The notes under the pieces: model-generated
Database searches by the model: none
Told to the model about the DNA's origin: nothing
What the model saw: only the letters and a program-made list of their open reading frames with translations
Assembly: GCA_017445145.1 (NCBI GenBank)
Contig: JAFSVI010000144.1
Location: 36,992-100,991 of the forward strand
DNA: 64,000 nucleotides
DNA from: Bacteroidaceae bacterium
GTDB taxonomy: Bacteria; Bacteroidota; Bacteroidia; Bacteroidales; Bacteroidaceae
Direction: 5' to 3'
Shown here: in pieces, positions 4,060 to 41,978 of the stretch
Numbering within the stretch: the first letter of the stretch is position 1
Layout: every line of letters starts with the position of its first letter
Position numbers and translations under genes: made by a program

Positions 4060-4255
4060 CTCCTTTTTCATGAATACACATGCTTCAGAGGCAAAAAATG
4101 GTAGGTAGGCAACGGAATATGAGCTTTTGGGAGGAAAAGGGGAAAAGAGTGTCTAATTTTTTGACGTTTTAACCCAAAGCATTACACTTCTGTCAGAAGG
4201 AATGCCCTTTGCGGTCTTTAGCGCCTGTACGTTATAGTCTTAGCACCTACGCGTC

Positions 4256-5299
4256 CTACATCAGCGCCTTGAAGGCGCTGATGAGCTGGTCGTTTTCGGG
4301 TGGGCTTTGCACGGCGATGCGGAAATGTGCTGGCGTGAGACCTTGGAAATTGGCTGCGTCGCGGATGAGGATGCCGTGGTTGTTGGCGAGGTGAGCCTTC
4401 AGTGCTGTCGCTGTGCCGCTATGCAGGTGGCACAGGAGGATGTGCGTGTCGGATGGATGCACATCGACAATCCCTGTTGCAGCGAGGGCCGCGGCCACGC
4501 GTTGGCGCTCGTCCAGGAGCTGTTGCAGCGGCAGCGTGTAGTGGCTTTCATGTTCGAGCAGGAACATGGCGGCTTTCTGCGCGAGGCTGTTGACGCTCCA
4601 CGGCATGTGATGCGCTCGCAGTTGGCCAATGAGTGCTTGGTGGGCTGTGACGAAGCCTATGCGCAGCCCCGGCACGGCGAAGCGCTTGGTCATGGAGTGC
4701 AACATGATGACATTGGGGCGCGCAACGGCCTCAGCCACAGGCAACAACGGTCGCTGCGTGAAGTGCGAATAGCTGGCATCGATGACAAACAGCGTTTGCG
4801 GGTTGGCATCGATGGTGTGCAGAAGAGGCTCCAGCGGCATCACCGTGCCAGTGGGGTTGTTGGGGTTGCACAGCCATGCAAGCGACGTGGGTGTGGAAGA
4901 CGGCAGTTGGTCCACTGCCGTCACGGCGATGCCTGCCAGGCGACATGCGTCGGCATATTCGCTGAAAGTAGGTGTCACGACCAAGGCGCTGGCTGTGCGT
5001 GGGGCATCCTCCACCACTCCCCCACCCTTTGCTGGGCGCGGTTGTGTGCTGGCAATGAGATAGATAGCCTCTATGGCACCATTGGTTACGATGACCTGCG
5101 AAGCGTCGATGCCGAGCCTCTGGGCGATGGCTCTCTCCACGGTTGCCGACGAAGGTTCGGGATAGTTGGCCACGGCGGGCATGCACGCCGCAAGGTGGGC
5201 GTAGAGTGGGCTGTGGTCGAAGTGGTTATAAACGTTGGAGCTGAAGTTGACCTTGATGCCGGGGTAGGCAAAGATGTCGTCGCCGTGGCCGTGGAGCAT
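4256..5299 (-). CDS. cobD: L-threonine-O-3-phosphate decarboxylase (PLP-dependent aminotransferase class I/II fold; Salmonella CobD)
   Basis: 347 aa. MLHGHGDDIFAYPGIKVNFSSNVYNH... and ...LHSMTKRFAVPGLRIGF (PLP-lysine context). It is the last gene of the cob block. Confidence 0.8.
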   Translation of the reverse strand: MLHGHGDDIFAYPGIKVNFSSNVYNHFDHSPLYAHLAACMPAVANYPEPSSATVERAIAQRLGIDASQVIVTNGAIEAIYLIASTQPRPAKGGGVVEDAPRTASALVVTPTFSEYADACRLAGIAVTAVDQLPSSTPTSLAWLCNPNNPTGTVMPLEPLLHTIDANPQTLFVIDASYSHFTQRPLLPVAEAVARPNVIMLHSMTKRFAVPGLRIGFVTAHQALIGQLRAHHMPWSVNSLAQKAAMFLLEHESHYTLPLQQLLDERQRVAAALAATGIVDVHPSDTHILLCHLHSGTATALKAHLANNHGILIRDAANFQGLTPAHFRIAVQSPPENDQLISAFKALM

Positions 5300-5347
5300 A
5301 GATGATGAGGTGTGTGGGATGGCTGTTGTGGTTGGTGAAGTCAGAGC

Positions 5348-8317
5348 TTACGCCTTGAGTATCGAGTAAAGGAGGTCCATGTCGAGATGGCGGCGCACGT
5401 GGTCGGCCAGGCGGTCGTACTGCGTCTCCTTGAACGCTGCCGGGTCCATGGCAGCGGGTTGCGCCGGGCTTTTGTCGTGGAGCAGGTAGTCGATGACGGG
5501 GGCGTTGTCCAGGAAGCCGTGGATGTAGGTGCCTATGCAATGGTCGCCCTCGAGGATGGCCTGGTCGGTGGTGCTCACGCCCTGATGAATCTCGTAGCCC
5601 CGGCACGTGTGGCCCCGGAAGGTGAATGAGACCTGGCGCGTGGTCTTCTCGGGCGACATCGTGGTGTTGATGGGCAGCAGCGCAAGTCCCGGCAGCGAGG
5701 CTATGGAACCCTCTATGCCATCTGGGTCGTTGACGGTGAGGCCCATCATCTGGTAGCCTCCGCAGATGCCAACCACTGTTGTGCCGCGGCGGTGAGCACC
5801 CTGTATGGCCGCCGCGCAGCCGTTGCGGCGCAGCTCCAAGAGGTCGTCGAGGGTGGCCTTTGTGCCTGGCAGGATGATGATGTCGGCCTTGGCGAGGTCA
5901 CTGACGTTGTTTGTGTAGAAGAGGTTGACGCGCGGTTCGCGCTCGAGTGTGTCGAAGTCGGTGAAATTGCTGAGGTGGCGGAGCAGCACCACGGCGATGT
6001 TGACCTTGCCCTCGGCGAGCTGGCGCCGTTTGTTGGCGAGGCTCACGCTGTCCTCTTCCTCGATGTAGATGTCATCATAATAAGGCACCACGCCAATGAC
6101 CGGCACGCCGCAGATGTCGTGGAGCAAGCGGCGGCCCTCGTCGAAGAGACGCATGTCACCACGGAACTTGTTGACGATGATGCCCTTGATGCGCGCGCGG
6201 TCGGCGGGTGTCTGAAGCATGATGCTGCCATAGGCCGAGGCAAAGACGCCGCCACGGTCTATGTCAGCCACGAGGACGACGGCGGCATCGGCATGGCGCG
6301 CCATGGGCATGTTGACGAGGTCGGTGGCGCGCAGGTTGACCTCGCTGATGCTGCCGGCACCCTCCATGACGATGGGGTTGTAGCGCTGCGCGAGACGGTC
6401 GAAAGCGCCACACACCTCAGCCCTGAAGTCGGGGCCGGCGGGTTGGCTGCCGCCGTCGGTGCGCCGCCAGAAGGAATAGGCATCACGGTTGCCTATGGGC
6501 CGGCCGTGGAGCACAACCTGGCTCGTGTGGTTGGAGTTTGGTTTTAGCAACAGGGGGTTCATGTCGGTGTGGCAGGGTATGCCTGCCGCCTCGGCCTGCA
6601 CGGCCTGTGCACGACCTATCTCGAGTCCCTCGGGCGTGGCGTAGGAGTTGAGGGCCATGTTCTGGGCCTTGAATGGCGCGGGGTGGTAGCCATCCTGGCG
6701 GAAGATGCGGCACAGAGCCGTGGCGACGACGCTCTTGCCCACGTCGCTCCCCGTGCCGGCGAGCATGAGGGGCCGCAGTGGGGCGTGGATGGTCGTTGAG
6801 GCTTGTGCGGGCGTAGCGGCCAGTGGCGCCGATGGCGGCCGTGAGGCGGCGCGGCTGTCGGCAGTGAAGAAGGGTGTGTAGAGGTGTGTGTAGCTGGCCA
6901 CGACGTTCTTGTAGCGCAGCACGGGCGTGGCCACGGGTGCGCCCGTGGCGTCATAAACCTGGCAGACGGACGTCGGCTGTGGAGCGGCGTCGCTGGTGCC
7001 GGCGCCGGTGTCGGCAGTTAGGAACTGCGTGTAGTGGAACTCATGGCCACGGTGCTCGACACCGTCGATGACGAAGCGCCGGTAGCCGAGCGAGAGGCGG
7101 CGCTGGGCTGTGCGTGCAGTTATGGTGTGTGGCAGCACGCCACACATGGGGTATGTGGCGTCGTCGGTGACTATGGCCTCGCAGAGATACATCATGCCTC
7201 CGCACTCGGCCGCCACACGTCCGCCGCGTTGGGCAAAGTTGCGTATGGCCGTGCGGCAAGCTTCGTTGGCTGCCAGCGTCTGGAGATGCTTCTCGGGATA
7301 GCCCCCGGGCAGGTACAGCAGGTCGATGCCGTCGAGGCGGGGCACGTCGGTCTCGGGGTCGAAGAAGGTGACATGGTGCCAGCGGTCGAGGTTCTCCTGG
7401 TAGATGAACGAGAAGGACTCGGCATTGCGCGCCACGGCCACGGCCCACTCCCCAGCCGCTGTGCCTGGCGCTTCTCCGCCAGCTGCCGTGCCTGGTGCTT
7501 CTCCGCCAGGTCCCCCAGCCGCCGTGCCTGGCGCTTCTCCGCCAGCCGCCGTGCCTGGCGCTTTTCCGCCAGATTCCCCAGCCGCTGTGCCTGGCGCTTC
7601 TCCGCCAGCTGCCGTGCCTGGTGCTTCTCCGCCAGCTGCCGTGCCTGGCGCTTTTCCGCCAGGCATGTCGGCGAGCAAGGCATCGACATCGACATGCTCG
7701 GCCACGAGGGCCGCCAGCTGGCTGATGTCGCTGCGCTCCGAGAAGTCCAGGCCCAGATAGCGTGAGCCATGCTCGAGGGCGGCGGTGCGGGGTATGAAGC
7801 CGTAGCAGCGCAGCTGAAGGTCGCGGCACACCTGCTGCAGCATGGCGCGGTGGCGCTGCGATCCCACCTTGTTGAAGATGACACCGGCGATGCGCACGTC
7901 GTGGCGGAAGGCGGCGAAGCCCGCGAGCAGCGGTGCCAACGAGTAGGCGGCACTGCGGGCATCGACCACCAGCACCACGGGGATGCCCAGCACGGCGGCA
8001 ATCTCGGCCGACGAGCCGCGGTCGCGGTCGTAGCCGTCGAACAGCCCCATCATACCCTCGACGACACACACGTCGGCGTCACGGCCATAGCGGCCAAAGA
8101 GGGTGGCGACGTGGTCGGGCGTGGCCATGAAGGTGTCGAGGTTGATGCTGGGGCGCCCGCATGCGCGGTGGTGAAACTTGGTGTCGATATAGTCGGGGCC
8201 GCACTTGAAGGGCTGCACGCGCAGACCGCGCTCGCGCAGCGCAGCGAGCAGCCCGAGGGCGACGGTGGTCTTGCCGCATCCCGACGTGGGGGCGGCTATC
8301 AGCATAGCATGAGGCAT
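5348..8317 (-). CDS. cbiA/cobQ: Fused cobyrinate a,c-diamide synthase (CbiA/CobB) and cobyric acid synthase (CbiP/CobQ), with no stop codon between the two halves
   Basis: ORF track 5348..8497, trimmed to MPHAMLIAAPTSGCGKTTVALGLL (ATG at 8317). The N-terminal half is CbiA (GPDYID, YLPGGYPE, ECGGMMYL). A linker ..SRAASRPPSAPLAATPAQASTT.. follows. The second half is CobQ (LMLAGTGSDVGKSVVATALCRI, NMALNS, NPLLLKP, ICGGYQMMG). Confidence 0.85.
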   Translation of the reverse strand: MPHAMLIAAPTSGCGKTTVALGLLAALRERGLRVQPFKCGPDYIDTKFHHRACGRPSINLDTFMATPDHVATLFGRYGRDADVCVVEGMMGLFDGYDRDRGSSAEIAAVLGIPVVLVVDARSAAYSLAPLLAGFAAFRHDVRIAGVIFNKVGSQRHRAMLQQVCRDLQLRCYGFIPRTAALEHGSRYLGLDFSERSDISQLAALVAEHVDVDALLADMPGGKAPGTAAGGEAPGTAAGGEAPGTAAGESGGKAPGTAAGGEAPGTAAGGPGGEAPGTAAGGEAPGTAAGEWAVAVARNAESFSFIYQENLDRWHHVTFFDPETDVPRLDGIDLLYLPGGYPEKHLQTLAANEACRTAIRNFAQRGGRVAAECGGMMYLCEAIVTDDATYPMCGVLPHTITARTAQRRLSLGYRRFVIDGVEHRGHEFHYTQFLTADTGAGTSDAAPQPTSVCQVYDATGAPVATPVLRYKNVVASYTHLYTPFFTADSRAASRPPSAPLAATPAQASTTIHAPLRPLMLAGTGSDVGKSVVATALCRIFRQDGYHPAPFKAQNMALNSYATPEGLEIGRAQAVQAEAAGIPCHTDMNPLLLKPNSNHTSQVVLHGRPIGNRDAYSFWRRTDGGSQPAGPDFRAEVCGAFDRLAQRYNPIVMEGAGSISEVNLRATDLVNMPMARHADAAVVLVADIDRGGVFASAYGSIMLQTPADRARIKGIIVNKFRGDMRLFDEGRRLLHDICGVPVIGVVPYYDDIYIEEEDSVSLANKRRQLAEGKVNIAVVLLRHLSNFTDFDTLEREPRVNLFYTNNVSDLAKADIIILPGTKATLDDLLELRRNGCAAAIQGAHRRGTTVVGICGGYQMMGLTVNDPDGIEGSIASLPGLALLPINTTMSPEKTTRQVSFTFRGHTCRGYEIHQGVSTTDQAILEGDHCIGTYIHGFLDNAPVIDYLLHDKSPAQPAAMDPAAFKETQYDRLADHVRRHLDMDLLYSILKA
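7455..7661. repeat. Tandem array: seven 27-nt units plus two 9-nt spacers, in-frame inside cbiA
   Basis: The units gccgctgtgcctggcgcttctccgcca and variants start at 7455, 7482, 7518, 7545, 7581, 7608 and 7635. The spacers are ggtccccca (7509-7517) and gattcccca (7572-7580). Each unit contains a CTGGCG-N6-CGCCAG hairpin. The array translates on the minus strand as (G)GEAPGTAAG repeats. Confidence 0.95.
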
Positions 8318-9096
8318 AGCGAGAGGTAGAGAAGCAGTTCGGTGATGATGAACGTGGCACCGCAGCAGTCGCCGGTGTAGCCCTGCAGACGGCGGTGCAT
8401 CCACGCGAAGAGCGCGGCGCAGCCGCCCACGGGCAGCACCAAGGCGGCGAGCCACTGCCCCATCGTGGGCGACGTGGCCGGCGTGAGCACCAGGCATAGC
8501 GCCACGGGTGCGACGGCGAGCAGCAGTGTGAGCAGGCGTTCGGCCACGGGTGTGGCTTCATAGACGAGGCGGTTCTTGGCCTCGGCCTCGCTGCGGGCGT
8601 ATGGCAGGAAGAGGATGATGGTGGAGCTGAGGCCCTTGGCCATGGTGTCGGCTGCCACGATGGCTAAGGGCGAGAGGCCCACGTCGATGAGTTCGGTGAG
8701 GACGTTCCACACGAGGAGCACGTAGAGCACCAGCCCCAGCACGCCGTAGGTGCCTATGTGGGAGTCCTTCATGATGGCGAGTGTGCGCTCGCGCGAGGTG
8801 CCGCCGCCAAAGCCGTCGCAGAAGTCGGCAAAGCCGTCCTCGTGCAGGGCACCCGTGAGCAGGCACCGCGCCGCCAGGGCCACGGCCACAGCCACCTCCG
8901 GCGCCAGGCAGAGGCTGTCGGCCACGGCGACGACCGCCGCCATCGTGCCGCCCGTGAGCCACCCGGCGAGGGGCCACAGCGGCACGACGTGCTGGAAATA
9001 GCGGCGCTCGATGGTGGCGATGCGCCACAGCGGCAGCCGCGTGAAGAACATCAGCGTCGCCAGCGCGCGCTTAGAAATACTTTGTAATCTCGGCAT
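8299..9096 (-). CDS. cobS: Adenosylcobinamide-GDP ribazoletransferase (cobalamin synthase)
   Basis: ORF track 8299..9273, trimmed to MPRLQSISKRALATLMFFTRLPLW.. (ATG at 9096). Also ..GALHEDGFADFCDGFGGG... It overlaps the cobT 3' end and the cbiA start. Confidence 0.85.
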   Translation of the reverse strand: MPRLQSISKRALATLMFFTRLPLWRIATIERRYFQHVVPLWPLAGWLTGGTMAAVVAVADSLCLAPEVAVAVALAARCLLTGALHEDGFADFCDGFGGGTSRERTLAIMKDSHIGTYGVLGLVLYVLLVWNVLTELIDVGLSPLAIVAADTMAKGLSSTIILFLPYARSEAEAKNRLVYEATPVAERLLTLLLAVAPVALCLVLTPATSPTMGQWLAALVLPVGGCAALFAWMHRRLQGYTGDCCGATFIITELLLYLSLCLMLC

Positions 9097-10093
9097 GTTG
9101 GAAATTGTCCATTTCGTTGAGCAGGTGAACGGCCGAGGCCACGATGGGGTAGGCACACAGCGCGCCCGTGCCCTCGCCAAGGCGCATGCCAAGGCGCAGC
9201 AGCGGCGTGGCATGCATGGCGTGGAGCATGAGGCTGTGGCCGCCCTCGTCGCCACAATGGCCAAAGATGGCACACTCGCGCACCGACGGTTGCAAGCGCT
9301 CGGCGGCGAGCATGCATGCCGTCATGATGAAGCCATCGACGAGAATCACCATGCGCCGCTCGGCAGCGCGTAGCATGGCACCGATGGCGGCGGCCATCTC
9401 GTAGCCCGCGAAATAGCGCACGGTGTCGGCTACGGAGGGGGCATCCACGCTTGCGCGGAAATGCTCCACGGCGCGTGTGAGCACGTCGAGCTTATGGCTG
9501 ATGCCGGCGGCGGCGAGGCCGCTGCCGGCTCCCACGCATTGCGGCAGGGGAATGTCGAGTAGTAGGTGCATGAGCACGCTCGATGGCGACGTGTTGCCAA
9601 TGCCCATCTCGCCGAGCGAGAGCACATTGCTGCCTTCGGCGCCAACGGCATCGACCTGCTCGCGGCCCACGGCCAGGGCGCGCTCCCACTCGGCGGCCGT
9701 CATGGCTGCGCCGTGGAGGAAGTTGCGGGTGCCGCGGGCTATCTTGCGGGGGATGATGTGGGCATGGCGCACGGGGTCGAAGTCGAAATCCACGCCCACA
9801 TCGACGATGCGCAGCGTGAAGCCATGCTGGCGGCACAGCACGTTGACGCCGCCGCCGCCGCGGCCGTAGTTGAGCATCTGCTGCCACGTCACCTCGCGCG
9901 GCGAGAGCGACACGCCCTCGCGCTCTATGCCATGGTCGCTGCCGAAGAGGATGTGGGCGGGTTGGCGCAGCTCGGGGCTGAGGGTGTCCTGGATGAGGGC
10001 CACTTGCATGGCCACCTCTTCGAGCACGCCAAGCGAGCCTTTGGGCTTGTTGAGGTTGTCGAGCTTGGCTTGTATGGATTGTTGGGAAATCAT
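9071..10093 (-). CDS. cobT: Nicotinate-nucleotide--dimethylbenzimidazole phosphoribosyltransferase
   Basis: ORF track 9071..10135, trimmed to MISQQSIQAKLDNLNKPKGSLGVLEE.. (ATG at 10093). Also ..GEMGIGNTSPSS.., ..GGHS... Confidence 0.85.
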   Translation of the reverse strand: MISQQSIQAKLDNLNKPKGSLGVLEEVAMQVALIQDTLSPELRQPAHILFGSDHGIEREGVSLSPREVTWQQMLNYGRGGGGVNVLCRQHGFTLRIVDVGVDFDFDPVRHAHIIPRKIARGTRNFLHGAAMTAAEWERALAVGREQVDAVGAEGSNVLSLGEMGIGNTSPSSVLMHLLLDIPLPQCVGAGSGLAAAGISHKLDVLTRAVEHFRASVDAPSVADTVRYFAGYEMAAAIGAMLRAAERRMVILVDGFIMTACMLAAERLQPSVRECAIFGHCGDEGGHSLMLHAMHATPLLRLGMRLGEGTGALCAYPIVASAVHLLNEMDNFQHAEITKYF

Positions 10094-10150
10094 AGCTTTT
10101 TGGGAGAAGGATGGGGGTGCGGCTGGCAGCCGCACGCAATGGACGAAATT

Positions 10151-10240
10151 AGGGGCAATAGGGGAATAGGGGCGGGGGAAGCGGGGAAGGTGAGGGTAAG
10201 GGAAGCGGGGTAAGGGAAGCGGGGTAAGGGGAAGCGGGTC
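10151..10240. repeat. G-run-rich tract with three copies of GGTAAGGGAAGCGG (C-rich on the transcribed cob strand)
   Basis: aggggcaataggggaataggggcgggggaagcggggaaggtgagggtaagggaagcggggtaagggaagcggggtaaggggaagcggg. It sits in the 159-nt cobU-cobT spacer. The adjacent perfect palindrome gtgcggctg-g-cagccgcac lies at 10117-10135. Confidence 0.9.
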
Positions 10241-10252
10241 GGGCTGAAGGCA

Positions 10253-10801
10253 TTATGGGGCGGTGGGAGGTTGTTGGCTCTTGAGGTGTATGGGGATTCC
10301 GCTCACCATGAGCACCACGTCGTTGGCTCGCGCGGCCACATACTGGTTGAGCCATCCCAGAAGGTCGGTGAAGCGGCGCTGTAGGGCATTGGCGCTGGTG
10401 CCTCCGAGGCCAATCTCGTTGGTCACGAAGATGAAGGTGGCGTCCTGCGCCGTGAAGCGGTCGAACTCCGCCTGCATGAGGCGCAGCGTGGCATCCACAT
10501 CGGGGGGCGCCTGGTCGGGGGCCTGCGGTGTGAAGTAGTTGGTGGCCCATAGGGTGAGGCAATCAACGAGCACCACGCGTCCGCTGACATCGTGGCGGCT
10601 CAGATGGCGCTCCTCCTCGATGTTGGTCCACTGCGGGCCGCGGCGTGTCTGGTGGCGGCGCACGCGCTCCCGGAACTCGTCGTCCCATATGTGGGCCGTG
10701 GCCACATAGACGGGGTGGTCGGTGAGCGAGAGCGCAAGGCGCTCGGCGTAGGCGCTCTTGCCGGAGCGCTGCCCGCCGGTGATGAGGGTGATGTGTGTCA
10801 T
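10253..10801 (-). CDS. cobU: Adenosylcobinamide kinase / adenosylcobinamide-phosphate guanylyltransferase
   Basis: ORF track 10253..11386, trimmed to MTHITLITGGQRSGKSAYAERLA.. (P-loop). The ATG at 10801 forms an ATGA overlap with the stop of the upstream permease gene. Confidence 0.85.
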   Translation of the reverse strand: MTHITLITGGQRSGKSAYAERLALSLTDHPVYVATAHIWDDEFRERVRRHQTRRGPQWTNIEEERHLSRHDVSGRVVLVDCLTLWATNYFTPQAPDQAPPDVDATLRLMQAEFDRFTAQDATFIFVTNEIGLGGTSANALQRRFTDLLGWLNQYVAARANDVVLMVSGIPIHLKSQQPPTAP

Positions 10802-11811
10802 GAGCGTCGGCGAAGGAGAATGGCTATTGCCACGGGCGCCCCGATGAGCGCCGTGACGGAGTTGATGGGCAGCGCGCCCTCCATGCCGGGCAGACGCGCT
10901 ATGAGGTTGCACACGAGGGCCAGAGCCGCCCCGCAGAGGAAGGTGGCTGGCAGGAGCGTGCGGTGGTCGGAGGTCACGAAGATGCCTCGTGCGATGTGTG
11001 GCACTGCCAGCCCGAGGAACATGATGGGTCCGCAGTAGGCGGTGGTGACGGCGGTGAGCACGCCTGCAGAGCAGATGATGAGCATGCGCGAGCGCCGTAT
11101 GTTGAGGCCGAGGTTGGCAGCATAGCGTTCGCCCAGGAGCAGCATGTTGAGAGGCTTGGCCAACAGCATGGCCAGCGGGCATAGCACGGCCATCAGACCC
11201 ACGAACACCCACACCTGGCCGCCGGTGACGCGCGCAAACGACCCCAAGCCCCAGATGACGTAGGCGCGGATGTCCTCCTCGCTGGAGAAGTATTTGAGCA
11301 CGCCGATGATGGCGGTGGCGATGTAGCCGATGAGCACGCCGACGATGAGCAACGTGGCGCGGCCCTCGACGCGGCGCGACAGCCACACGATGAGCATCAT
11401 GGCCGCTAGCGCACCCACGATGGCGGCCACCGTCAGCGCCGTGTTGCCCACAAGGCCGAAGCGCGACAGCGCGCGTCCGCCAAGGCTGCCGCCGAGCAGC
11501 ACCATGAAGGCTACGCCGAGGCTGGCCGCCGAGCTCACGCCGAGCACCGAGGGTCCGGCCAGGGGGTTGTGGAACACGGTCTGCATCTGCAGCCCGGCCA
11601 GCGAGAGGCCAGCGCCGCAGGCTATGGCCGTCAGCGTCTGCGGCAGGCGTGTGTGGAGCACAATGTTGGAAAACACCTCGCTGGGCGTGCCCCGGCCCAT
11701 GAGGATGTCGATGACCTCAGCAACGGGTATGGCCACCGACCCCACGGCGAGATTGAGCAGCGCCAGTGCGGGTATGCTGATGAGCAGGAGTAGGAATCGT
11801 GAGTGTGACAA
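10798..11811 (-). CDS. FecCD-family ABC transporter permease (BtuC-like)
   Basis: ..LPQTLTAIACGAGLSLAGLQMQTVFHNPLAGPSVLGVSS.., ..LLLGERYAANLGLNIRRSR.., ..GALPINSVTALIGAPVAIAILLRRRS. The proposed TTG start at 11811 is 15 nt after the cbiJD stop and gives MSHSRFLLLLISIPALALL. The start is uncertain. Confidence 0.75.
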   Translation of the reverse strand: MSHSRFLLLLISIPALALLNLAVGSVAIPVAEVIDILMGRGTPSEVFSNIVLHTRLPQTLTAIACGAGLSLAGLQMQTVFHNPLAGPSVLGVSSAASLGVAFMVLLGGSLGGRALSRFGLVGNTALTVAAIVGALAAMMLIVWLSRRVEGRATLLIVGVLIGYIATAIIGVLKYFSSEEDIRAYVIWGLGSFARVTGGQVWVFVGLMAVLCPLAMLLAKPLNMLLLGERYAANLGLNIRRSRMLIICSAGVLTAVTTAYCGPIMFLGLAVPHIARGIFVTSDHRTLLPATFLCGAALALVCNLIARLPGMEGALPINSVTALIGAPVAIAILLRRRS

Positions 11812-11825
11812 TGGTGGGGTGTGGG

Positions 11826-13616
11826 TTAAGCGTTGTGGATTATGATGTCGAGGTCGCCGGTGGGAAAGACGCGGCGGCAGTGCTCCATGCAGCGACGGCG
11901 CAGCGCCTCGAAGAATGGCGGCGGCATTAGCCCCCATAGCTCGCGCGCCATGGTGATGCCGCCGATGGCGGTGGCAGCGTCGGCGATGCCGGCCTCGCGG
12001 GCCACGCTGACGAGGAACTGGCGGTTCATGGTCACCTTGTGGGAGTGGGTGTCGAGGTGGCCCTCGGCAAGCTTCACGGCTTTGCCTATCATGATGCCCA
12101 GCACAACGCGCCCAAAGCCCAGGGCATGGGCACGCGCCAGCGCCTGGCCCACGAAGTTGCCATAGTGGATGACGCGCAGCGAGGGCATGGCGGCCAGCAG
12201 CGCCTCCTCGCCGCGCTTGCCGGAGGCCAGGCCTATGGCCGTGCAGCCCATGGCGCGCGCCACCTCCATCTCGCGTGATATGCTCTGCACAAAGGCGTCG
12301 TTGGAGAGGGGGGTGACGATGCCCGAGGTGCCTATGATGCTGATGCCATCGACGACGCCCACGCGCGGGTTGAACGTCTTCTCTGCCAGCTGGCGGCCGC
12401 CAGCGACGCTGATGGTGACATCCAGCGGGGCATCGGTCAGCGCCTGCAGCGACTCGGTGATGCAGCGGCGCGGCGTGGCGTTGATGGCGGGTTCGCCCAC
12501 GGCGATGCCCAGCCCGGGCAGCGTCACGCGGCCCACGCCGTCGCCCTGCAGGAAGCGGATGCCCTCGCGGCGGTCGGTCGCCACGGCAACGCGCGCGTCG
12601 ATGCGCGCGCCACGGGTGACGTCGGGGTCGTCGCTGAAGTCCTTGACACAGTAGGCGGTGGCGCTGAGTGTGGCGGGCTGCGCGATGGCAGCGGCGGAGG
12701 TGACGGGCGGCTCATACCCCACCTCGACGCCCACGGTCTCGCCGTCGGGCAGACGCACGTCAACGCTCGCGGGTGTCTCGCCAGTGAGCATATAGTGGGT
12801 GGCGGCCACGGCAGCGGCCGTGGCACAGGTGCCTGTGGTGAGTCCCGTGTGCAGGGGGAAGAAGGCCGGCAACAGGCGCTCCACACTGCGGCGCAGGCCC
12901 CGCGGACCGTTGACGGTCAGTACCTGGCAGCCCACATCGGGCAACGGCGGGCGCATGACGACGAACACCTGCACCCCGGCAGCACGGGCGGCGCGCACCT
13001 TCTCCTCGAAGCCGCCGCTGATGCCGCTTTCCTTCGTGATGATGGCCTCGGGACGTAGGCGGCTGATGAGCGCGGCAGTGTCGTCGTGCTCATAATAGGC
13101 CAGGCGGGCGGGCGGGAAGCCTTGGCCTACGGCCGTGGCTAAGGAGCTGCCGCGGTCGAGGATGCGGAACCAGCATGCATCGTGGTGCTGCCAGTAGGGC
13201 CGCAGCTTGGCGATGGTGTTGACGCCGGTGAGCGCCAGCAAGCGGCCGACATGGTGTCTCTCCAACTGCGCAACGGCATCGCCGAAGTCGGCACACCACA
13301 CGAGGTCGGCATCGCGAGGCGGATAGAGGCGCTCGTAGCGCACCACAGGCACGCCCAGCTCGTGCGCCGCAAGCATGATGTTGAGGTGCAGCGCTTCGGC
13401 AAACGGATGGGCAGCATCGACGATGAGCGCCACGCCGTGGGCGCGGCAGCAAGCCGTCATAGCCTCCACCGTCATGCCACCGCTGAGGGCCACGCCGTGG
13501 TGCAGCGCAAGGTCCTGTGCGCCGGTTTTGGTGCTGTAGAGAAATGGCTTGCCGGCCTGCTCGAGCACCTCTGCGGCCTTGCGGCCTTCTGTTGTTCCGC
13601 CGAATACTATGATCAC
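11826..13616 (-). CDS. cbiJ/cbiD: Fused precorrin-6x reductase (CbiJ/CobK) and cobalt-precorrin-5B C1-methyltransferase (CbiD)
   Basis: ORF track 11826..13832, trimmed to a GTG at 13616 giving (M)IIVFGGTTEGRKAAEVL. The N-terminal half is CobK-like (..AIITKESGISGGFEEK..). The C-terminal half is CbiD-like (..LHTGLTTGTCATAAAVAA.., ..EPAINATPRRCI.., ..GTSGIVTPLSNDAF..). Confidence 0.8.
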   Translation of the reverse strand: MIIVFGGTTEGRKAAEVLEQAGKPFLYSTKTGAQDLALHHGVALSGGMTVEAMTACCRAHGVALIVDAAHPFAEALHLNIMLAAHELGVPVVRYERLYPPRDADLVWCADFGDAVAQLERHHVGRLLALTGVNTIAKLRPYWQHHDACWFRILDRGSSLATAVGQGFPPARLAYYEHDDTAALISRLRPEAIITKESGISGGFEEKVRAARAAGVQVFVVMRPPLPDVGCQVLTVNGPRGLRRSVERLLPAFFPLHTGLTTGTCATAAAVAATHYMLTGETPASVDVRLPDGETVGVEVGYEPPVTSAAAIAQPATLSATAYCVKDFSDDPDVTRGARIDARVAVATDRREGIRFLQGDGVGRVTLPGLGIAVGEPAINATPRRCITESLQALTDAPLDVTISVAGGRQLAEKTFNPRVGVVDGISIIGTSGIVTPLSNDAFVQSISREMEVARAMGCTAIGLASGKRGEEALLAAMPSLRVIHYGNFVGQALARAHALGFGRVVLGIMIGKAVKLAEGHLDTHSHKVTMNRQFLVSVAREAGIADAATAIGGITMARELWGLMPPPFFEALRRRCMEHCRRVFPTGDLDIIIHNA

Positions 13617-13648
13617 GTGTGGATGGGCTGGGGGGATGGTGATAGGGC

Positions 13649-15412
13649 TTATGGCCGGAAGAGGTGTGAGAATGAGGCGTCGTAGAGGCGGCTCAAGCCC
13701 TCGCGGTTGTCGATGGCCTCGCCCACGACGAGCATCGTGGTCAGCGTGAGGCCGTTGGCGTGGACCATGGCGGCGAGATCCTTGAGCTGTCCGCGATAGA
13801 TGCGCTGGTCGGGCCAGGTGAGATGGTAGCACGCGGCCACGGGCGTCTCGGGCGGATAGCCGCCGTCGAGGAGCTGCGCCTGCACGTCATCGACGATGCT
13901 GGCAGAGAGGAAGATGCACATCGTGGACTGCGAACGTGCCAGCAGACGGAGCTTCTCGCGCTCGGGCATCGGTGTGCGCCCCTCGCCGCGGGTGAGGATG
14001 ATGGTCTGCGTGCGCTCGGGGATGGTGAATTGCGAGCGCAGCTCGGCGGCAGCAGCGAGGAAGCTGCTGATGCCGGGTGTGATGTGGTAGCTCATGCCGT
14101 GGCGGTCGAAATAGGCCATCTGCTCCTCGATGGCGCCGAAGATGCAGGGGTCGCCCGTGTGGAGGCGCACGATGAGATGTCCGCGCTCGTAGTGCTGACG
14201 CATGAGTTCGCACTGCTCCTCGAGCGCCATGTCGGCCGACGAGCGCACCGTGGCGCCCGCCTTGTGGCACTCGGTGAGAGCCTTGGGCACGAGGCTCCCG
14301 GCGTAGAGGATGAGGTCGGCACGCTCCAGGAAGCGTCGGCCCTGCACGCTGATGAGGTCGGGGTTGCCCGGCCCTGCACCCACTATCTCCACATGCCCGT
14401 GGCGCAGACAGCGGCTGTCGATGGCGAGCGCCAGTGTCCAGGTGTCGGCTTTTACCTTCGGCAGTACAAGGTTGCCGTGGTTGCTGCCAAGGATGGCCGC
14501 CGCCTCGCACACGCTGGGCGTGCCAACGTGTTTGGCCACCGTGGCGCTGGGCGTGGGCACTTCAACCTGGTTTAGCTCGGAGGCCGTGAAGAAGACCACG
14601 GCGTGGCCATGGCGCTTGCGCAACATGCCGACAAAGGGTTCATCTGCCTTCACGTCGATGGTGCAAAAGCGCGCCACAGACGTGGGATGAATGCCGTGGG
14701 CAACGAGGGCGTCGGCCATCTCGCTGTAGATCTCCTCGTAGCGTGCGGGGCGGTGGGCAAGCCCAAAGCCCGCGGTGGCAACCTTGGGCACGAAGTGGAG
14801 GCACGCCACTCCGGCGGGGGCGCGGCGCACGAATGGCGACACGACGACCACGAGGGCGAACCTGTCGGGCGTGGCATCGTCGATGGTGCTGATGGCGGTG
14901 ACGTGGGGTGGCATCGTGGTCTCAAGGTATTCGGTGCCCGCGTCGCGCACGTCGAGCAGCAGCGCCGTGGGTTTGCGGTTGACGAAGGCGAAGATGCATT
15001 GGTTCATGTCGGGCGCACCGGCAATGGTCCAGCCGAAGCGCGGCGCCAGCGTGTCGAGAGCCCACAGGCCCGCCACATCGCTCTGGGTGGTGACGACGGC
15101 TTCGCCGCCGATGGCTGCCGCCAGATGCGTGGCCAGGGCGTTGGCACCGCCGATATGCCCGGAGAGCACGGCGATGACCTTTTGCCCGAGGCTGTCGATG
15201 CACACCACGGCGGGGTCGGTGTGCTTGTCCTCGACCAGCGGGGCTATGGTGCGCACGCAGATGCCCAATGCCCCGACGAAGACGAAGGCGTCGAAGTCGT
15301 GCCAGCGCGTGGCCACGTCGCTGCGGCGGAGCATCTCGCCCGACAGCTCCTGCGCCACACGGCTCGCCACCTGCTGGCCGGCCTCACTGATTTGCAGTAT
15401 TGCTACTTTCAT
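13649..15412 (-). CDS. cbiG/cbiF: Fused cobalt-precorrin-5A hydrolase (CbiG) and precorrin-4 C11-methyltransferase (CbiF/CobM)
   Basis: 587 aa. The N-terminus is MKVAILQISEAGQQVA..VFVGALGICVRTIAP..VVCIDSLGQ (CbiG). The C-terminus is VEIVGAGPGNPDLISVQG..LILYAGSLVP..RLHTGDPCIFGAIEEQM..TPGISSFLAAAA..IILTR (CbiF). Confidence 0.8.
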   Translation of the reverse strand: MKVAILQISEAGQQVASRVAQELSGEMLRRSDVATRWHDFDAFVFVGALGICVRTIAPLVEDKHTDPAVVCIDSLGQKVIAVLSGHIGGANALATHLAAAIGGEAVVTTQSDVAGLWALDTLAPRFGWTIAGAPDMNQCIFAFVNRKPTALLLDVRDAGTEYLETTMPPHVTAISTIDDATPDRFALVVVVSPFVRRAPAGVACLHFVPKVATAGFGLAHRPARYEEIYSEMADALVAHGIHPTSVARFCTIDVKADEPFVGMLRKRHGHAVVFFTASELNQVEVPTPSATVAKHVGTPSVCEAAAILGSNHGNLVLPKVKADTWTLALAIDSRCLRHGHVEIVGAGPGNPDLISVQGRRFLERADLILYAGSLVPKALTECHKAGATVRSSADMALEEQCELMRQHYERGHLIVRLHTGDPCIFGAIEEQMAYFDRHGMSYHITPGISSFLAAAAELRSQFTIPERTQTIILTRGEGRTPMPEREKLRLLARSQSTMCIFLSASIVDDVQAQLLDGGYPPETPVAACYHLTWPDQRIYRGQLKDLAAMVHANGLTLTTMLVVGEAIDNREGLSRLYDASFSHLFRP

Positions 15413-15462
15413 TATGTGTTGCTTGTACTTGTATGCGTTATAGGCACGGATGGCGGTAGCTG

Positions 15463-16722: not shown

Positions 16723-16750
16723 GGCATGGCAGCTGCGAGGTGGGACGTTG

Positions 16751-31217: not shown

Positions 31218-34067
31218 ATGCCACGGCCATCATCCTCTACGCCGCCACCCCACCCCATGACACCACTCCACACCCTCCTCAAGCAGCGCGTCCTCGTCCT
31301 CGACGGCGCCATGGGCACCATGCTCATTGCGCGCGGCTACACCCGTGGCTGCAATGACCTGCTGTGTCTCGAAGCACCCGCTGTCGTCGAGGACATCCAC
31401 CGCCGCTACCTCGCTGCCGGTGCCGACATCATCGAAACCAACACGTTCAACGCCCAGCGCATCTCGCTGGCCGACTACGATGCCACCGAGCGCGTGCGCG
31501 ACATCAACCTTGCTGCGGCGCGCATGGCGCGGCGCCTGGCCGACGAGCAGACACGCCTCACACCCTCGCGTCCACGCTTTGTGGCGGGTTCTGTGGGTCC
31601 CACCAGCAAGACACTGTCCATGAGCCCCGACGTGGAGGACCCTGCCCTGCGCACGATCACCTTCGATGCCCTGTGCGATGCCTACGTGGAGCAGATGACA
31701 GCCCTCATCGAAGGGGGCGTGGACGTGCTCCTCATCGAGACCATCTTCGACACGCTCAATGCCAAGGCCGCCCTGTGTGCTGCCACACACGCCATGCACG
31801 CCGTCGGCCGCACGGTGCCCATCATGCTGTCGTTCACCGTCACCGACCGCGCCGGGCGCACGCTCTCGGGCCAGACCATCGACGCCTTCCTCACCTCCGT
31901 GGCCCACGCCGACCTTCTCAGCGTGGGCCTGAACTGCTCGTTTGGCGCCGCCGACATGCTCGCGCCGCTGCGGCAGATGTCGGCCCAGGCACCATATTTC
32001 ATCAGCGCATACCCCAACGCCGGCCTGCCCAACGCCCTCGGCCAGTACGACGAGTCCCCCACCACCATGCTCGCCCACATGCGGCGTTTCACCGACGAGC
32101 GTTTGGTGAACATCATCGGCGGATGCTGCGGCACCACCGACGACCACATACGCCTCCTCGCCACCCTGGCCGACCAGGCGCGCCCCCACGAGCCTGTGGC
32201 CGTGGCGCCCACGCTGCGCCTGGCCGGGCTCGAGCGCTTGGAGCTGACGCCGGAGCTGGCCTTTGTCAACGTTGGCGAGCGCTGCAATGTTGCCGGCTCG
32301 CGCAAGTTCCTGCGCCTCATCCGCGAGCACGACTACGACGCCGCCCTGGCCATAGCCCGCCAGCAGGTGGAGGACGGCGCCCTCGTCATCGACATCAACA
32401 TGGACGACGGGCTGCTCGACGCCGCCAGCGAGATGACCCATTTCCTCGACCTCATCGCCGCCGAACCCGAGATAGCACGCGTGCCGGTGATGATCGACTC
32501 GTCGGAGTGGGGCGTCATCAGCCAGGCACTGCGCCACGTGCAGGGCAAGGCCATCGTCAACAGCATATCGCTCAAGGAAGGCGAAGCCACCTTCATCGCC
32601 CATGCCCGCGAGTTGCGCGCCATGGGAGCCGCCGCCGTGGTGATGGCCTTCGACGAGCAGGGTCAGGCCACGACCTACGAGCGCCGCACGGCGGTGTGCC
32701 GCCGTGCCTACGACCTCCTGACACGCGTCGTGGGCATGCCCGCCGCCGACATCATCTTCGACCCCAACGTGCTCACCGTGGCCACGGGCATGCCCCAGCA
32801 CGATGCCTACGCGCTGGACTTCATCCGCGCCACACGCTGGATCCGCACCCACCTGCCTGGCGCTCACGTCAGCGGCGGCATCTCCAACCTGAGCTTTGCC
32901 TTCCGCGGCAACAACGACTTGCGCGAGGCCATGCACGCCGTGTTCCTCTACCACGCCCGACGCGCAGGGCTTGACATGGCCATCCTCAACCCCGCCACGC
33001 GCGTGGCCTATTCCGACATCCCCGCCCCGCTGCTTGAGGCGCTGGAGGACGTGGTGCTCTGTCGCCGCCCCGACGCCACAGAGCGCCTCATCGCCATGCA
33101 GGCAGCACCCGCCGCCCAGGCCACCACGACGCCACCCACTGTGCCCGGCGCTTTTCCGCCGGGTCTCGGCGCTTTTCCGCCGGGTCTCGGCGCTTTTCCG
33201 CCGGGCCACGACACCGCCGACGCCGCATCCACGCCAGAGGCATCGGTGGCCACGCGCCTCATCACCGCCCTGCGCCGCGGCACCACCGACACCCTCGAGG
33301 CCGACCTCGAGGCCGCGCTGGCCGCCTACCCCAGCCCCGTGGCCATCATCGAGGGTCCGCTCATGGAGGGCATGAACCTCGTTGGGCAGCTCTTCGGCGA
33401 GGGCAAGATGTTCCTGCCGCAGGTGGTGAAGACGGCACGCACCATGAAGCGCGCCGTGGAAATCCTGCAACCCCACATCAACGCAGCGGCCACCGGGCCG
33501 GCAGCGCCGGACACGCCGTCGCCGGCCTCGCGCCCCCGCGTGCTGCTTGCCACGGTCAAGGGCGATGTCCACGACATCGGCAAGAACATCGTCGCCGTGG
33601 TCATGGCATGCAACGGCTACGACGTCATCGACCTCGGCGTGATGGTGCCGGCAGAGACCATCGTGGAGAAAACGCTTGAGCTGCAACCCGACGTCATCGG
33701 TCTCTCAGGCCTCATCACACCATCGTTGGGCGAGATGGTGGCCACGGTGCGCCTCCTTGACCAGGCTGGCATACACGTGCCAGTGCTCATCGGTGGTGCC
33801 ACGACAAGCCCGCTCCACACGGCGCTGAAGATAGCCCCGGCCTACGCCGGACCCGTCATCCATGTGCGCGACGCCAGCCAGAACGTGCCGCTCGCGGCTC
33901 CCTTCCTCAATGCCGCCACGGCCGACGAGGCCGCTGCCGAGCTGCTGCGCCGCCAAGAGACATTGCGCAGCGCCGCCACCACGCCGCCCGGCGCCGAACT
34001 CCTCACGATAGAGGAGGCGAGACGCCGCAAACCCAACTTCTTCCATCACGACAGCAACCAGCCATGA
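31218..34067 (+). CDS. metH: Cobalamin-dependent methionine synthase (Hcy, pterin, cap and B12-binding modules; no AdoMet reactivation module)
   Basis: ..VLVLDGAMGTML..ADIIETNTFNA.., ..NVGERCNVAGSRKF.., ..INMDDGLLD.., ..GISNLSF.., ..VKGDVHDIGKNIV.. (DxHxxG). The start may instead be M14 (31257). The protein ends about 60 aa after the B12 domain. Confidence 0.9.
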   Translation: MPRPSSSTPPPHPMTPLHTLLKQRVLVLDGAMGTMLIARGYTRGCNDLLCLEAPAVVEDIHRRYLAAGADIIETNTFNAQRISLADYDATERVRDINLAAARMARRLADEQTRLTPSRPRFVAGSVGPTSKTLSMSPDVEDPALRTITFDALCDAYVEQMTALIEGGVDVLLIETIFDTLNAKAALCAATHAMHAVGRTVPIMLSFTVTDRAGRTLSGQTIDAFLTSVAHADLLSVGLNCSFGAADMLAPLRQMSAQAPYFISAYPNAGLPNALGQYDESPTTMLAHMRRFTDERLVNIIGGCCGTTDDHIRLLATLADQARPHEPVAVAPTLRLAGLERLELTPELAFVNVGERCNVAGSRKFLRLIREHDYDAALAIARQQVEDGALVIDINMDDGLLDAASEMTHFLDLIAAEPEIARVPVMIDSSEWGVISQALRHVQGKAIVNSISLKEGEATFIAHARELRAMGAAAVVMAFDEQGQATTYERRTAVCRRAYDLLTRVVGMPAADIIFDPNVLTVATGMPQHDAYALDFIRATRWIRTHLPGAHVSGGISNLSFAFRGNNDLREAMHAVFLYHARRAGLDMAILNPATRVAYSDIPAPLLEALEDVVLCRRPDATERLIAMQAAPAAQATTTPPTVPGAFPPGLGAFPPGLGAFPPGHDTADAASTPEASVATRLITALRRGTTDTLEADLEAALAAYPSPVAIIEGPLMEGMNLVGQLFGEGKMFLPQVVKTARTMKRAVEILQPHINAAATGPAAPDTPSPASRPRVLLATVKGDVHDIGKNIVAVVMACNGYDVIDLGVMVPAETIVEKTLELQPDVIGLSGLITPSLGEMVATVRLLDQAGIHVPVLIGGATTSPLHTALKIAPAYAGPVIHVRDASQNVPLAAPFLNAATADEAAAELLRRQETLRSAATTPPGAELLTIEEARRRKPNFFHHDSNQP
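33147..33206. repeat. Three tandem copies of a 21-nt unit ggcgcttttccgccgggtctc, in-frame inside metH
   Basis: Copies lie at 33147, 33168 and 33189 and translate to GAFPPGL GAFPPGL GAFPPG. Each has the hairpin CCGGCG-CTTTTC-CGCCGG. The core matches the cbiA array at 20 of 22 positions. Confidence 0.95.
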
Positions 34068-34594
34068 CACCCGACACCACCCCAGCCACCATGCCCGGCG
34101 CTTTTCTGCCAGATTCCGACGCTGCTGCCGCGCTGCAGCAGACGGCCACCAACATCCTCGACCGCGTGGGCGGCACGCTCGACGCCAACACCATGCCCCT
34201 GCTCACGGCCGACCAGATCACGCTCCTGGCCTACAGCACCCTGCGCGCGGAGGTGCTCGAGGGTGGCTTCATACAGCTCATACACAACGGCTACGGCCCC
34301 TTCATCTTCCTCAACCCCTTTGCCAAGGCCATGCGCCTCTGGGGCAAGGAGCTTGCGCCCGACGCCGCCGGCGAGGTGCTACACTCGTTCTCCCGCCTCG
34401 TCTATGACGGCCGCCAACTCTTCGAGCGCCATGGCGCGGCGCTCACCGCCGAGATGGACGACGACGCCTTCATGGCCCTCTATGAGCAATACCCCGACTT
34501 CGACGAACTCGACGATACCTTCATCGACACGGAGGACGACATCACGGCTGCCGTCATGAGCTACGTCAGCAGCCACCAAGATGCCTTTTCCTGA
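34064..34594 (+). CDS. Hypothetical protein, DUF4375/DMP19-like
   Basis: 176 aa. ..LRAEVLEGGFIQLIHNGYGPFIFLNPFAKAMRLWG... There is an ATGA start/stop overlap with metH. The N-terminal residues MPGAFLPDS are encoded by a copy of the dispersed repeat. The family call is tentative. Confidence 0.5.
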   Translation: MTPDTTPATMPGAFLPDSDAAAALQQTATNILDRVGGTLDANTMPLLTADQITLLAYSTLRAEVLEGGFIQLIHNGYGPFIFLNPFAKAMRLWGKELAPDAAGEVLHSFSRLVYDGRQLFERHGAALTAEMDDDAFMALYEQYPDFDELDDTFIDTEDDITAAVMSYVSSHQDAFS

Positions 34595-40016: not shown

Positions 40017-40046
40017 GTGTGGGCGTTGATGGGGGGTAATGCGGGG

Positions 40047-40054
40047 CAAAGATA
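40047..40054 (-). promoter_or_regulatory. -7 promoter box TATCTTTG (minus strand)
   Basis: The plus strand reads caaagata. The box is 31 nt upstream of the lplA ATG. Confidence 0.55.
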
Positions 40055-40141
40055 CGCATTGCCCGCATACTTTCCAAACTTGTGCCATGTTTTAACCTTT
40101 TTTGGGTCACGGCTCATGCCGTTTTGCCCCGCGCGGGGCGA

Positions 40142-40204
40142 GGGGCATCCCCGCCAGGACACGGCGCATCCCCGCCGGGGAGCGCCGCACACCCGGCGGG
40201 ACTG
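40142..40204. repeat. Three tandem 21-nt units related to the metH/cbiA repeat (same stem, different loop), intergenic
   Basis: ggggcatccccgccaggacac / ggcgcatccccgccggggagc / gccgcacacccggcgggactg. They are preceded by the 14-nt perfect palindrome gccccgcgcggggc (40126-40139). Confidence 0.85.
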
Positions 40205-40210
40205 GGCGTC

Positions 40211-40296
40211 GCGTGCCGCGGCAAGCGTGGCAACATGCCGCGGCGAATAACGCAACTTGCCGCGGCGAGTAATGCAACTTGCCGCGGACATCTGTG
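40211..40296. repeat. Iteron-like 22-nt direct repeats, each carrying the palindrome TGCCGCGG(CA)
   Basis: caacatgccgcggcgaataacg (40231), caacttgccgcggcgagtaatg (40253) and caacttgccgcggacatctgtg (40275), plus a partial gcgtgccgcggcaagcgtgg (40211). The palindromic cores are spaced exactly 22 nt apart. Confidence 0.85.
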
Positions 40297-40330
40297 GCGC
40301 GGGGCAAGCCCTGGCAGGCGCATGCGCACG

Positions 40331-40369
40331 AAAAAGCCCGCCCCTGGCCTTGGCGGCCGGAGGCGGGCT
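40331..40369 (-). terminator. Intrinsic terminator of the DUF2582 gene
   Basis: On the minus strand, AGCCCGCC-N19-GGCGGGCT is followed by TTTTT. Confidence 0.65.
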
Positions 40370-41950: not shown

Positions 41951-41978
41951 GGGAGTATGTGGCTTGAATTTGAGGTTG

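Follow-up and report, generated by a model that had tools for sequence, protein, structure and literature searches.

A REP-type hairpin family with intragenic copies and its likely in-frame amplification in the CbiA linker of a Bacteroidaceae bacterium

A 64,000-nucleotide stretch from a Bacteroidaceae bacterium (GenBank assembly GCA_017445145.1, contig JAFSVI010000144.1, positions 36,992 to 100,991 of the forward strand; hereafter the window, with positions counted from its first nucleotide) carries a 23-nt hairpin element that is repeated in tandem inside a fused cbiA-cobQ gene and recurs in two other genes. We consider it likely that a member of a repetitive extragenic palindromic (REP)-type family came to lie in the interdomain linker of CbiA, where it was amplified in place in steps of 27 and 63 nt and filtered for reading frame and encoded peptide. 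We read the family as a REP family with intragenic copies, and Rickettsia palindromic elements (RPEs) are a parallel in behavior only. A preliminary description of this DNA had put forward the RPEs as the established precedent; the behavior that it recognized was borne out, but the closest known kind is REPs with intragenic copies (PMC3733652, PMC6006769).

The array at 7450 to 7663 consists of seven head-to-tail copies of GTGCCTGG(C/T)GCTT(C/T)TCCGCCAG on the plus strand. Their heads, which are the first positions of the units in Table 1, are spaced 27, 36, 27, 36, 27, and 27 nt apart, and the gaps separating the hairpin units are 4 to 13 nt long. As the preliminary description had it, positions 7455 to 7661 hold seven 27-nt units plus two 9-nt spacers, making 207 nt or 69 codons, and the minus-strand open reading frame (ORF) at 5348 to 8497 continues through them uninterrupted (...VDVDALLADMPGGKAPGTAAGGEAPGT...AAGEWAVAVARNAESFSFIY). 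The 69 amino acids encoded antisense to the element (MPGGKAPGTAAGGEAPGT...AAGE, with GGEAPGTAAG repeats) are rich in Pro, Gly, Ala, and Thr. Tandem Repeats Finder reported periods of 27 (7.3 copies), 36, and 63 (3.0 copies, 91% matches), and the array resolves into three 63-nt super-units plus one extra unit. The super-units are mutually 90 to 97% identical, implying that most of the array's growth came from copying two hairpins at a time. Short reads are difficult to assemble across 63-nt super-units so alike, and the copy number, or the array itself, might be an assembly artifact; this is barely conceivable, however, given the exact frame kept between two conserved domains, the ordered pattern of distinct point differences carried by the units, and the presence of similar in-frame arrays in independent assemblies.

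Pfam recognized CbiA/AAA_26 on one side of the array and GATase_3 on the other; within the CbiA part, as had been proposed, the array separates the nucleotide-binding from the glutamine-amidotransferase half. A second nucleotide-binding/GATase_3 pair lies further along the ORF, which therefore encodes a CbiA-CobQ fusion; its likely start is the methionine of MPHAML at 8317. The two parts form a continuous 1049-codon ORF with no stop codon at their junction (about 6800 to 6900), where an ~30-residue linker, TPFFTADSRAASRPPSAPLAATPAQASTTIHAPLRPLML, is found. In two relatives (L151 and L153) cbiA and cobQ are separate genes, and one database protein (P0029) has them fused.

The closest CbiA homologs in a search of 5.8 billion proteins were 67 to 77% identical. 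The preliminary description had called for an alignment of CbiA orthologs to learn whether the insertion was specific to the lineage; the array was absent from all 14 that we aligned, which are 410 to 523 amino acids long and have a variable linker of 20 to 40 residues. One ortholog from another species (P0012; L153, 6632 to 7960) has an unrelated repeat of its own, SHFSLNTSHFSLNTS..., at the same linker, and the CbiA interdomain linker thus seems to be a recurrent site of repeat gain. In an AlphaFold model of the CbiA part, which was of moderate quality (mean pLDDT, 61) and built on a shallow alignment, the array residues formed coil between the folded domains with a pLDDT of about 30; the insert is predicted to be disordered. 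A linker extension of ~69 residues is probably neutral for the enzyme.

The element has a GTG/GTT head and a 6-nt loop, CTTYTC; its 7-bp stem is rich in G+C, and three C-G pairs form the base. The family consensus is GTG/GTT, CCCGGCG, CTTYTC, CGCCGGG. Head and loop stay unchanged while the stem takes the forms CCCGGCG/CGCCGGG, CCTGGCG/CGCCAGG (the form in cbiA), CCTGAGG/CCTCAGG, CCCGAGG/CCTCGGG, and CCCGACG/CGTCGGG. Across 32 distinct 23-mers, part of them gathered by a scan demanding at least six of the seven pairs, 93.8% of stem cells pair and double changes occur in 4 of the 7 pairs, compared with 37 to 54% pairing in slid controls; several of the compensatory stem variants were also recovered by a scan based on sequence only. 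The hairpin noted originally in each cbiA unit is a 7-bp stem with a 6-nt loop whose pairing is conserved across the family. In the head, G1 is conserved in at least 90% of copies and T2 in at least 70%, and the third position is G or T in most copies.

Searching the window with the core CCYGGCGCTTYTCCGCCRG, with up to two mismatches allowed, gave 11 matches, all on the plus strand, where dinucleotide shuffles gave an expectation of 0.03. Seven were in cbiA, three at 33144 to 33204 in metH, and one at 34094 to 34112 in a gene for a DMP19-like protein. Covariance model R1 returned the same 11 copies with scores of 20 to 41 bits; the next separate site scored 13 bits, and an opposite-strand echo of cbiA unit 7 scored 17.6 bits. 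The strand of the element is constant, while the host genes are opposed (cbiA on the minus strand, metH and the DMP19-like gene on the plus strand), so that the same-strand recurrence irrespective of gene orientation claimed earlier for metH and for the site at 34 kb was confirmed.

The three metH copies fall in the linker that joins the pterin-binding domain to the B12-cap domain. Their 21-nt unit (33146 to 33205 in Tandem Repeats Finder) is 100% identical among copies, a GTGCC head precedes copy 1 only, and they are translated in the sense direction as VPGAFPPGLGAFPPGLGAFPPG (PGAFPPGL). As a DNA hairpin, the metH copy folds with −9.3 kcal/mol (z, −4.1). MetH orthologs that are 66 to 70% identical are variable in this linker and lack PGAFPPGLGAFPPGLGAFPPG. 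The DMP19-like gene reads its single copy in the sense direction as MPGAFLPD at codons 10 to 17, and the folding of this hairpin has been lost. The head of this copy is ATG instead of GTG (34091 to 34093), which supplies a Met codon in frame, 27 nt past the start that is coupled through ATGA.

A further site, 40142 to 40204, had been described as a loop variant of the family, a claim that did not hold up: its R1 score of 9 to 10 bits (E about 5 to 8) is at the noise level, and the site is a separate G+C-rich intergenic repeat. The surrounding intergenic region of ~800 nt (40089 to 40882) lies between a divergent lipB-like gene (39294 to 40088, minus strand) and an ORF at 40883 to 42166 (plus strand) and contains two unrelated tandem repeats, at 40145 to 40201 (period 21) and at 40230 to 40287 (period 22, GCAACTTGCCGCGGCGAATAAC), neither of which belongs to the hairpin family.

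What the three loci have in common is DNA and not peptide. The element is read antisense in cbiA, as P-G-G-E/K-A-P-G-T, and sense in metH and the DMP19-like gene, as V/M-P-G-A-F-P/L-P-G/D; because the same DNA is read on opposite strands to give different peptides, peptide selection cannot explain the identity of the DNA. The likeness also extends past the hairpin. GTGCC stands upstream of cbiA units 1 to 7 and of metH copy 1, with ATGCC in the DMP19 copy and GGTCT at metH copies 2 and 3, and a 3′ flank of AGATTCC is common to cbiA unit 4 and the DMP19 copy. These shared flanks, together with the reading on opposite strands, mean that neither a selected peptide nor shared codon usage suffices. 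Judged from the nucleotide sequences, then, the cbiA, metH, and DMP19 loci are homologous at the DNA level on one strand.

This homology bears directly on the view that the array is an ordinary low-complexity linker or variable-number tandem repeat (VNTR), made by local slippage in cbiA, and that metH and the DMP19-like gene resemble it through high-G+C codon usage for Pro, Gly, and Ala. The length of the CbiA linker does vary among orthologs, P0012 has its own repeat there, and the array has a clear higher-order tandem structure. Against this view stand the different peptides read from opposite strands, the excess of same-strand matches over the 0.03 expected, and the presence, in other genomes, of the 22- to 23-nt sequence with compensatory stems both between genes and in unrelated proteins. 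As an explanation of the whole it is largely refuted, and we give it very little credence. The VNTR alternative allowed for in the preliminary description nevertheless stands as a complement to the element: local amplification by 27 and 63 nt is supported, as is copy-number variation in relatives (see below), but it is most unlikely as the sole explanation.

The family extends well beyond the window. A first scan of genome contigs with the 19-nt core gave at least 117 loci, nearly all of them single chance matches in high-G+C genomes, and seven Bacteroidales records among the core matches listed were inspected. Among the matches listed, at least four named records of metagenome-assembled genomes (MAGs), of Prevotella, Prevotellaceae, or Bacteroidaceae, carry copies (Table 1). 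Three candidates (L030, L034, and L057) were rejected as family members, since the GTG head is missing from them and, in Arg-rich frames, they resemble coding sequence native to their genes. Scanning metagenomes with the 22-nt head-containing pattern GTKCCYGGCGCTTYTCCGCCRG gave 32 loci, about 17 of which have real members; one of the remainder, L143, was set aside as a native ParB-like GxRRFSA motif. A covariance model run over those 17 loci (83 kb) gave 56 hits, with up to 7 hits in 11 kb on the L148 contig. Metagenome copies are single, in tandem (periods, 30 to 56), or arranged as head-to-head dimers, and the periods of intergenic arrays are about 38 in L031, L122, and L140 and 56 in L142. 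The same 23-mer is found in distant contigs with unrelated flanks. These further in-frame and intergenic copies in Prevotella and Bacteroidaceae MAGs and in metagenome contigs uphold the suggestion that a dispersed element colonizes ORFs in frame.

Two related versions of the small membrane protein of L150, P0121 (96 amino acids) and P0122 (130 amino acids), carry 1.5 and 3.5 units, respectively, a two-unit difference (PAAVPGASPxG). They came from a peptide query carrying both array frames, which returned only these two proteins under composition filtering. Neither a copy nor an empty site was found in the syntenic DNA of relatives L151, L153, L154, and L155 (~57 kb; L152 was omitted as a second copy of the L151 locus), and the window's proteins had no match above 90% identity.

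In frame, the element is present in at least ten proteins besides those of the window. All six of its reading frames are open. Even so, at ~13 independent intragenic sites, only two of the six stop-free frames are used, sense VPGA(F/S)PPG and antisense PGG(E/K)APGT; the four Arg-rich frames (ARRFSAG, CPALLRR, RRRSAGH, and PAEKRRA) were met only in headless chance matches resembling native sequence. This two-frame bias is the outcome that purifying selection on tolerated insert peptides would give. It could also be taken, with the strict maintenance of frame, as a sign that selection retains the repeat for what it does, either as a flexible spacer tuning the coupling between ATP-binding and amidotransferase halves or as a fold in the mRNA that delays the ribosome on its way from one domain to the next, and the mRNA of the array region does fold better than its shuffles (z, −4.05). 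However, orthologs work without the array, the element also occurs in functionally unrelated proteins and in intergenic DNA, two cbiA units have a C·A mismatch on the mRNA strand, and selection against the Arg-rich frames accounts for the frame bias equally well. We therefore regard such a function as very unlikely.

Four metagenome loci (L119, L121, L125, and L136) connect the element with a gene resembling those for REP-associated tyrosine transposases (RAYTs). Each contains the element as an in-frame head-to-head dimer inside one gene, between the HUH and Tyr motifs of the product (PDHIHLL and GYHDRII...YM(D/L)ENP). The heads abut in L119 (GGCAC-C-GTGCC), are 10 nt apart in L125 and L136, and are about 150 nt apart in L121, and the orthologs in L119, L125, and L136 differ in unit number. 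An additional copy of the element lies directly 5′ of the RAYT-like gene. The protein matched NCBIfam REP_Tyr_transpos with an E value of 1e-10 and 41.6 bits, which is below the cutoff of 80. Pfam gave no match to the intact protein; Y1_Tnp was matched at 27.2 bits (cutoff, 23) only when the element-encoded residues and seven adjoining spacer residues were left out, and a PDB sequence search gave no match. In L121 (966 to 1159), the sequence separating the inverted copies encodes a low-complexity peptide rich in Ser, Pro, Gln, and Thr, and the spacing looks as if extra sequence had accumulated between the arms of the doublet. The head-plus-hairpin design and the association with this gene lead us to infer that a RAYT-like HUH enzyme mobilizes the element in the form of single-stranded hairpins.

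Several observations weigh against a history of REP-type insertion followed by amplification in place. The covariation alignment was in part preselected for pairing, as stated above. The fourth head base is the C that opens the stem, so that the head reads GTGC or GTTC and not the canonical GT[AG]G. Folding of the cbiA units is modest (−4.8 to −6.4 kcal/mol; z about −1.4). Classic REP clusters lie outside genes, and their units often point in alternating directions, whereas every locus in the window is within a gene and the array runs head to tail. The DMP19 copy brings no net gain in length relative to one ortholog: the DMP19-like protein of L155 has an N terminus equal in length to that of the window protein, and the copy is therefore no net insertion there. 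The window contains no RAYT-like gene detectable by tblastn. Finally, several in-frame copies in relatives are bracketed by host direct repeats of 6, 8, and 11 nt at their borders, where chance alone would give a shared word of 8 nt or more at about 3% of positions; the total added lengths at the copies so flanked are 33, 36, 36, and 60 nt. HUH-type transposition is not expected to yield flanking direct repeats.

These observations bring us to the main rival for the spreading step, in which no dedicated transposase takes part: hairpins stall replication; template switching at microhomologies, gene conversion between copies, and partial tandem duplication follow; and only products with lengths divisible by three are kept by selection. 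Direct repeats that vary from 6 to 11 nt are more suggestive of microhomology template switching or partial tandem duplication, and the lengths of block plus repeat given above fit with this. So do the flank beyond the hairpin shared by cbiA unit 4 and the DMP19 copy, the fact that the DMP19 copy substitutes sequence and adds none, the distance of only 0.9 kb between the metH and DMP19 loci (two of the three in the window), and the lack of a RAYT-like gene in the window. On the other side, a conserved GTG/GTT head beside a varying, compensated stem marks recognition by a protein in REP/RAYT systems (PMC3733652), the element lies inside and beside a RAYT-like gene at four loci, and an identical 23-mer stands in distant contigs amid unrelated flanks. 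On balance, we think spread without a transposase rather unlikely.

Under the reading that we prefer, a REP-type element amplified in place, one copy or a two-hairpin block would have entered a length-variable CbiA linker in this lineage, presumably by single-strand transposition, with a RAYT-like tyrosine transposase of the HUH type as catalyst. Slippage in replication, or unequal recombination among the hairpin units, would then have amplified it in blocks of 27 and 63 nt, and the only survivors would be frame-keeping, stop-free versions encoding a flexible peptide rich in Pro, Gly, and Ala. The copies in metH and the DMP19-like gene would be separate members of the same family.

REP-type hairpins are usually treated as intergenic, but the present family, in an abundant gut and rumen group, is repeatedly intragenic and lengthens linkers or loops of CbiA, MetH, AsnRS, a GH94 phosphorylase, and an aminotransferase. 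The sites that it occupies make up a natural survey of where proteins tolerate insertions, and it probably gives rise to length differences between strains in core genes. For those who annotate genomes or assemble metagenomes, it is a warning that arrays of this kind are genuine, not mistakes. A bolder proposal, which we hold to be doubtful, is that Prevotellaceae harbor an undescribed REP/RAYT-type system that prefers coding DNA, inserting at the fork on a fixed strand, with copies in the two peptide-friendly frames surviving and arrays then expanding in frame. If this were true, the system would regularly supply the core metabolic enzymes of gut and rumen bacteria with new linkers and loops that evolve fast, and the direct repeats of 6 to 11 nt would point to an insertion chemistry other than classic HUH.

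Table 1. Element copies and host genes in the window, and copies in relatives (handles such as L001 denote contigs outside the window)
Feature	Location	Strand or reading	Basis or detail
Tandem array, seven REP-like hairpin units	7450..7663	+ (element orientation)	Repeat finding, core search, covariance model R1
Unit 1, GTGCCTGGCGCTTCTCCGCCAGC	7461..7483	+	R1 36.2 bits
Unit 2, GTGCCTGGTGCTTCTCCGCCAGG	7488..7510	+	R1 35.9 bits; T·G wobble on + strand
Unit 3	7524..7546	+	R1 36.2 bits
Unit 4, loop CTTTTC	7551..7573	+	R1 36.3 bits
Unit 5	7587..7609	+	R1 36.2 bits
Unit 6	7614..7636	+	R1 32.6 bits
Unit 7	7641..7663	+	R1 39.3 bits
Host ORF, cbiA fused to cobQ in one frame	5348..8497	-	Pfam, translation
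Three element copies, 21-nt period	33141..33205	+	Core search, Tandem Repeats Finder, R1
Host gene metH, 949 aa	31218..34067	+	Pfam
Single decayed copy, ATGCCCGGCGCTTTTCTGCCAGA	34091..34113	+	R1 27.5 bits
Host gene, DMP19-like protein	34064..34594	+	Pfam; start overlaps metH stop (ATGA)
Prevotella sp. MAG copy	L001		Intergenic, upstream of polA
Bacteroidaceae MAG, two tandem copies	L031		Directly after stop codon; period about 38
Prevotellaceae MAG copy	L086		Intergenic
Second Bacteroidaceae MAG copy	L062		Intergenic
Intergenic copies	L001, L031, L062, L086, L122, L129, L140, L144		
Intragenic copies	L126, L138, L141, L148, L150, RAYT-like genes		
GH94 phosphorylase	L126	In frame, sense	...EATVPGAFPPPAAVPGAFPPGATIYHK...
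Aminotransferase, two sites	L148	In frame, sense	
691-aa membrane protein next to aminotransferase, two loops	L148	In frame, sense	OPT-family transporter-like by eye
AsnRS	L138	In frame, sense	AAVPGASSAG
141-aa protein	L141	In frame, sense	TsaE-like by eye
Small membrane protein	L150	In frame, sense	
Copies with flanking direct repeats	L138 2752-2775, L148 3772-3794, L126 2215-2267, L150 1407-1429		

The window holds other repeats as well. A 14-nt tandem repeat, GGGTAAGGGAAGCG, is present in 3 to 5 copies at 10175 to 10239, between cobT-like and cobU-like genes. At gathering thresholds, Rfam gave no family of any kind within the window, and no cobalamin riboswitch despite a full cob operon (4200 to 17000) and metH. 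A 66-nt near-perfect palindrome at 2164 to 2229, with 33-nt arms that are 91% complementary and have no spacer, lies at the start of an ORF (2171 to 2860) whose product has no Pfam match. Tandem repeats at 48286 to 48421 and 50635 to 50744, in ORFs of a glycosyltransferase region, have sequences unrelated to the hairpin element; one has a period of 30/60 and the other a period of 21 (5.2 copies, GGAGCAGGGCGCAAAGCTCAA).

Other classes of element were considered for the cbiA array and rejected. It is no CRISPR, as the gaps are so short, the units differ from one another, and an unbroken ORF runs through the array; nor is it an intein or intron, the segment being a low-complexity stretch of 207 nt. 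An intrinsic terminator would have a U-run after the hairpins on the mRNA strand, and there is none; a diversity-generating retroelement would have a pair of template and variable repeats, which is absent. A selected collagen-like peptide is incompatible with the reading of the same DNA on both strands.

Compared with known systems, the family is closest to the REPs. Like them, it is a short (20 to 40 nt), imperfect palindrome with a conserved 5′ head, a compensated stem, and G·T pairs, and its copies are single, clustered, or (in relatives only) head-to-head dimers, some of them in frame in linkers or loops. GTAG- and CGTC-tagged REPs have stems of 5 to 13 bp, form subfamilies by compensatory stem changes, and occur predominantly as head-to-head dimers, and their heads may be degenerate, GTGG included (PMC3733652). 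Intragenic REPs have been listed, with clusters encoding 43 to 82 amino acids, and read as units that a linker or loop can tolerate (Di Nocera et al. 2013, PMC3733652). Unlike described REPs, the present family has a GTGC/GTTC head, all of its window copies are intragenic, and the cbiA cluster is purely head to tail; the host species described for REPs also exclude the Prevotella-like Bacteroidales, to which this family belongs. REPs with intragenic, translated copies are thus a documented phenomenon that has apparently not been described before in this lineage, and our literature searches returned no description of such elements in Prevotella.

The presence of the element inside the RAYT-like genes of L119 to L136 is the arrangement known from RAYT subclass 2.4 of Bacteroidetes and Cyanobacteria (Quentin et al. 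2018, PMC6006769), which it resembles in having the element in frame between the HUH and Tyr motifs, three G-C pairs at the stem base, and a host among the Bacteroidetes. The motifs of that subclass are NH[IFV]H and YIxNNP (PMC6006769), whereas the protein found here has DHIH and YM(D/L)ENP and a C-terminal extension of ~170 amino acids and scores below the NCBIfam cutoff. Our results extend the REP-in-RAYT arrangement of Bacteroidetes to a concrete element, an incremental advance in that the general phenomenon is documented.

With the Rickettsia RPEs, the family shares the placing of palindromic repeats in frame in many unrelated genes, apparently translated (to judge from the ORFs) and tolerated in surface or linker regions. 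It differs in sequence and host, the homologs of its host proteins being from Prevotella or Bacteroidaceae MAGs, a distinction drawn without direct comparison with RPE sequences. RPE-1, the best known of them, is much longer, of the order of 100 to 150 nt, and RPEs have not been reported as seven-unit arrays with a 27-nt period such as that in cbiA. RPE-4 and RPE-6 have been classed with the CGTC-tagged REPs, with no associated transposase (PMC3733652). The family is unlike a miniature inverted-repeat transposable element in that the whole element is one 23-nt hairpin, with no terminal repeats around an internal sequence, and in that its flanking repeats vary from 6 to 11 nt. The cbiA array resembles coding VNTRs in being head to tail, with a unit length divisible by three and a higher-order 63-nt structure, and the copy-number difference between P0121 and P0122 is of the same kind; unlike that of a VNTR, however, its unit is not private to one locus but is dispersed in other genes and between genes.

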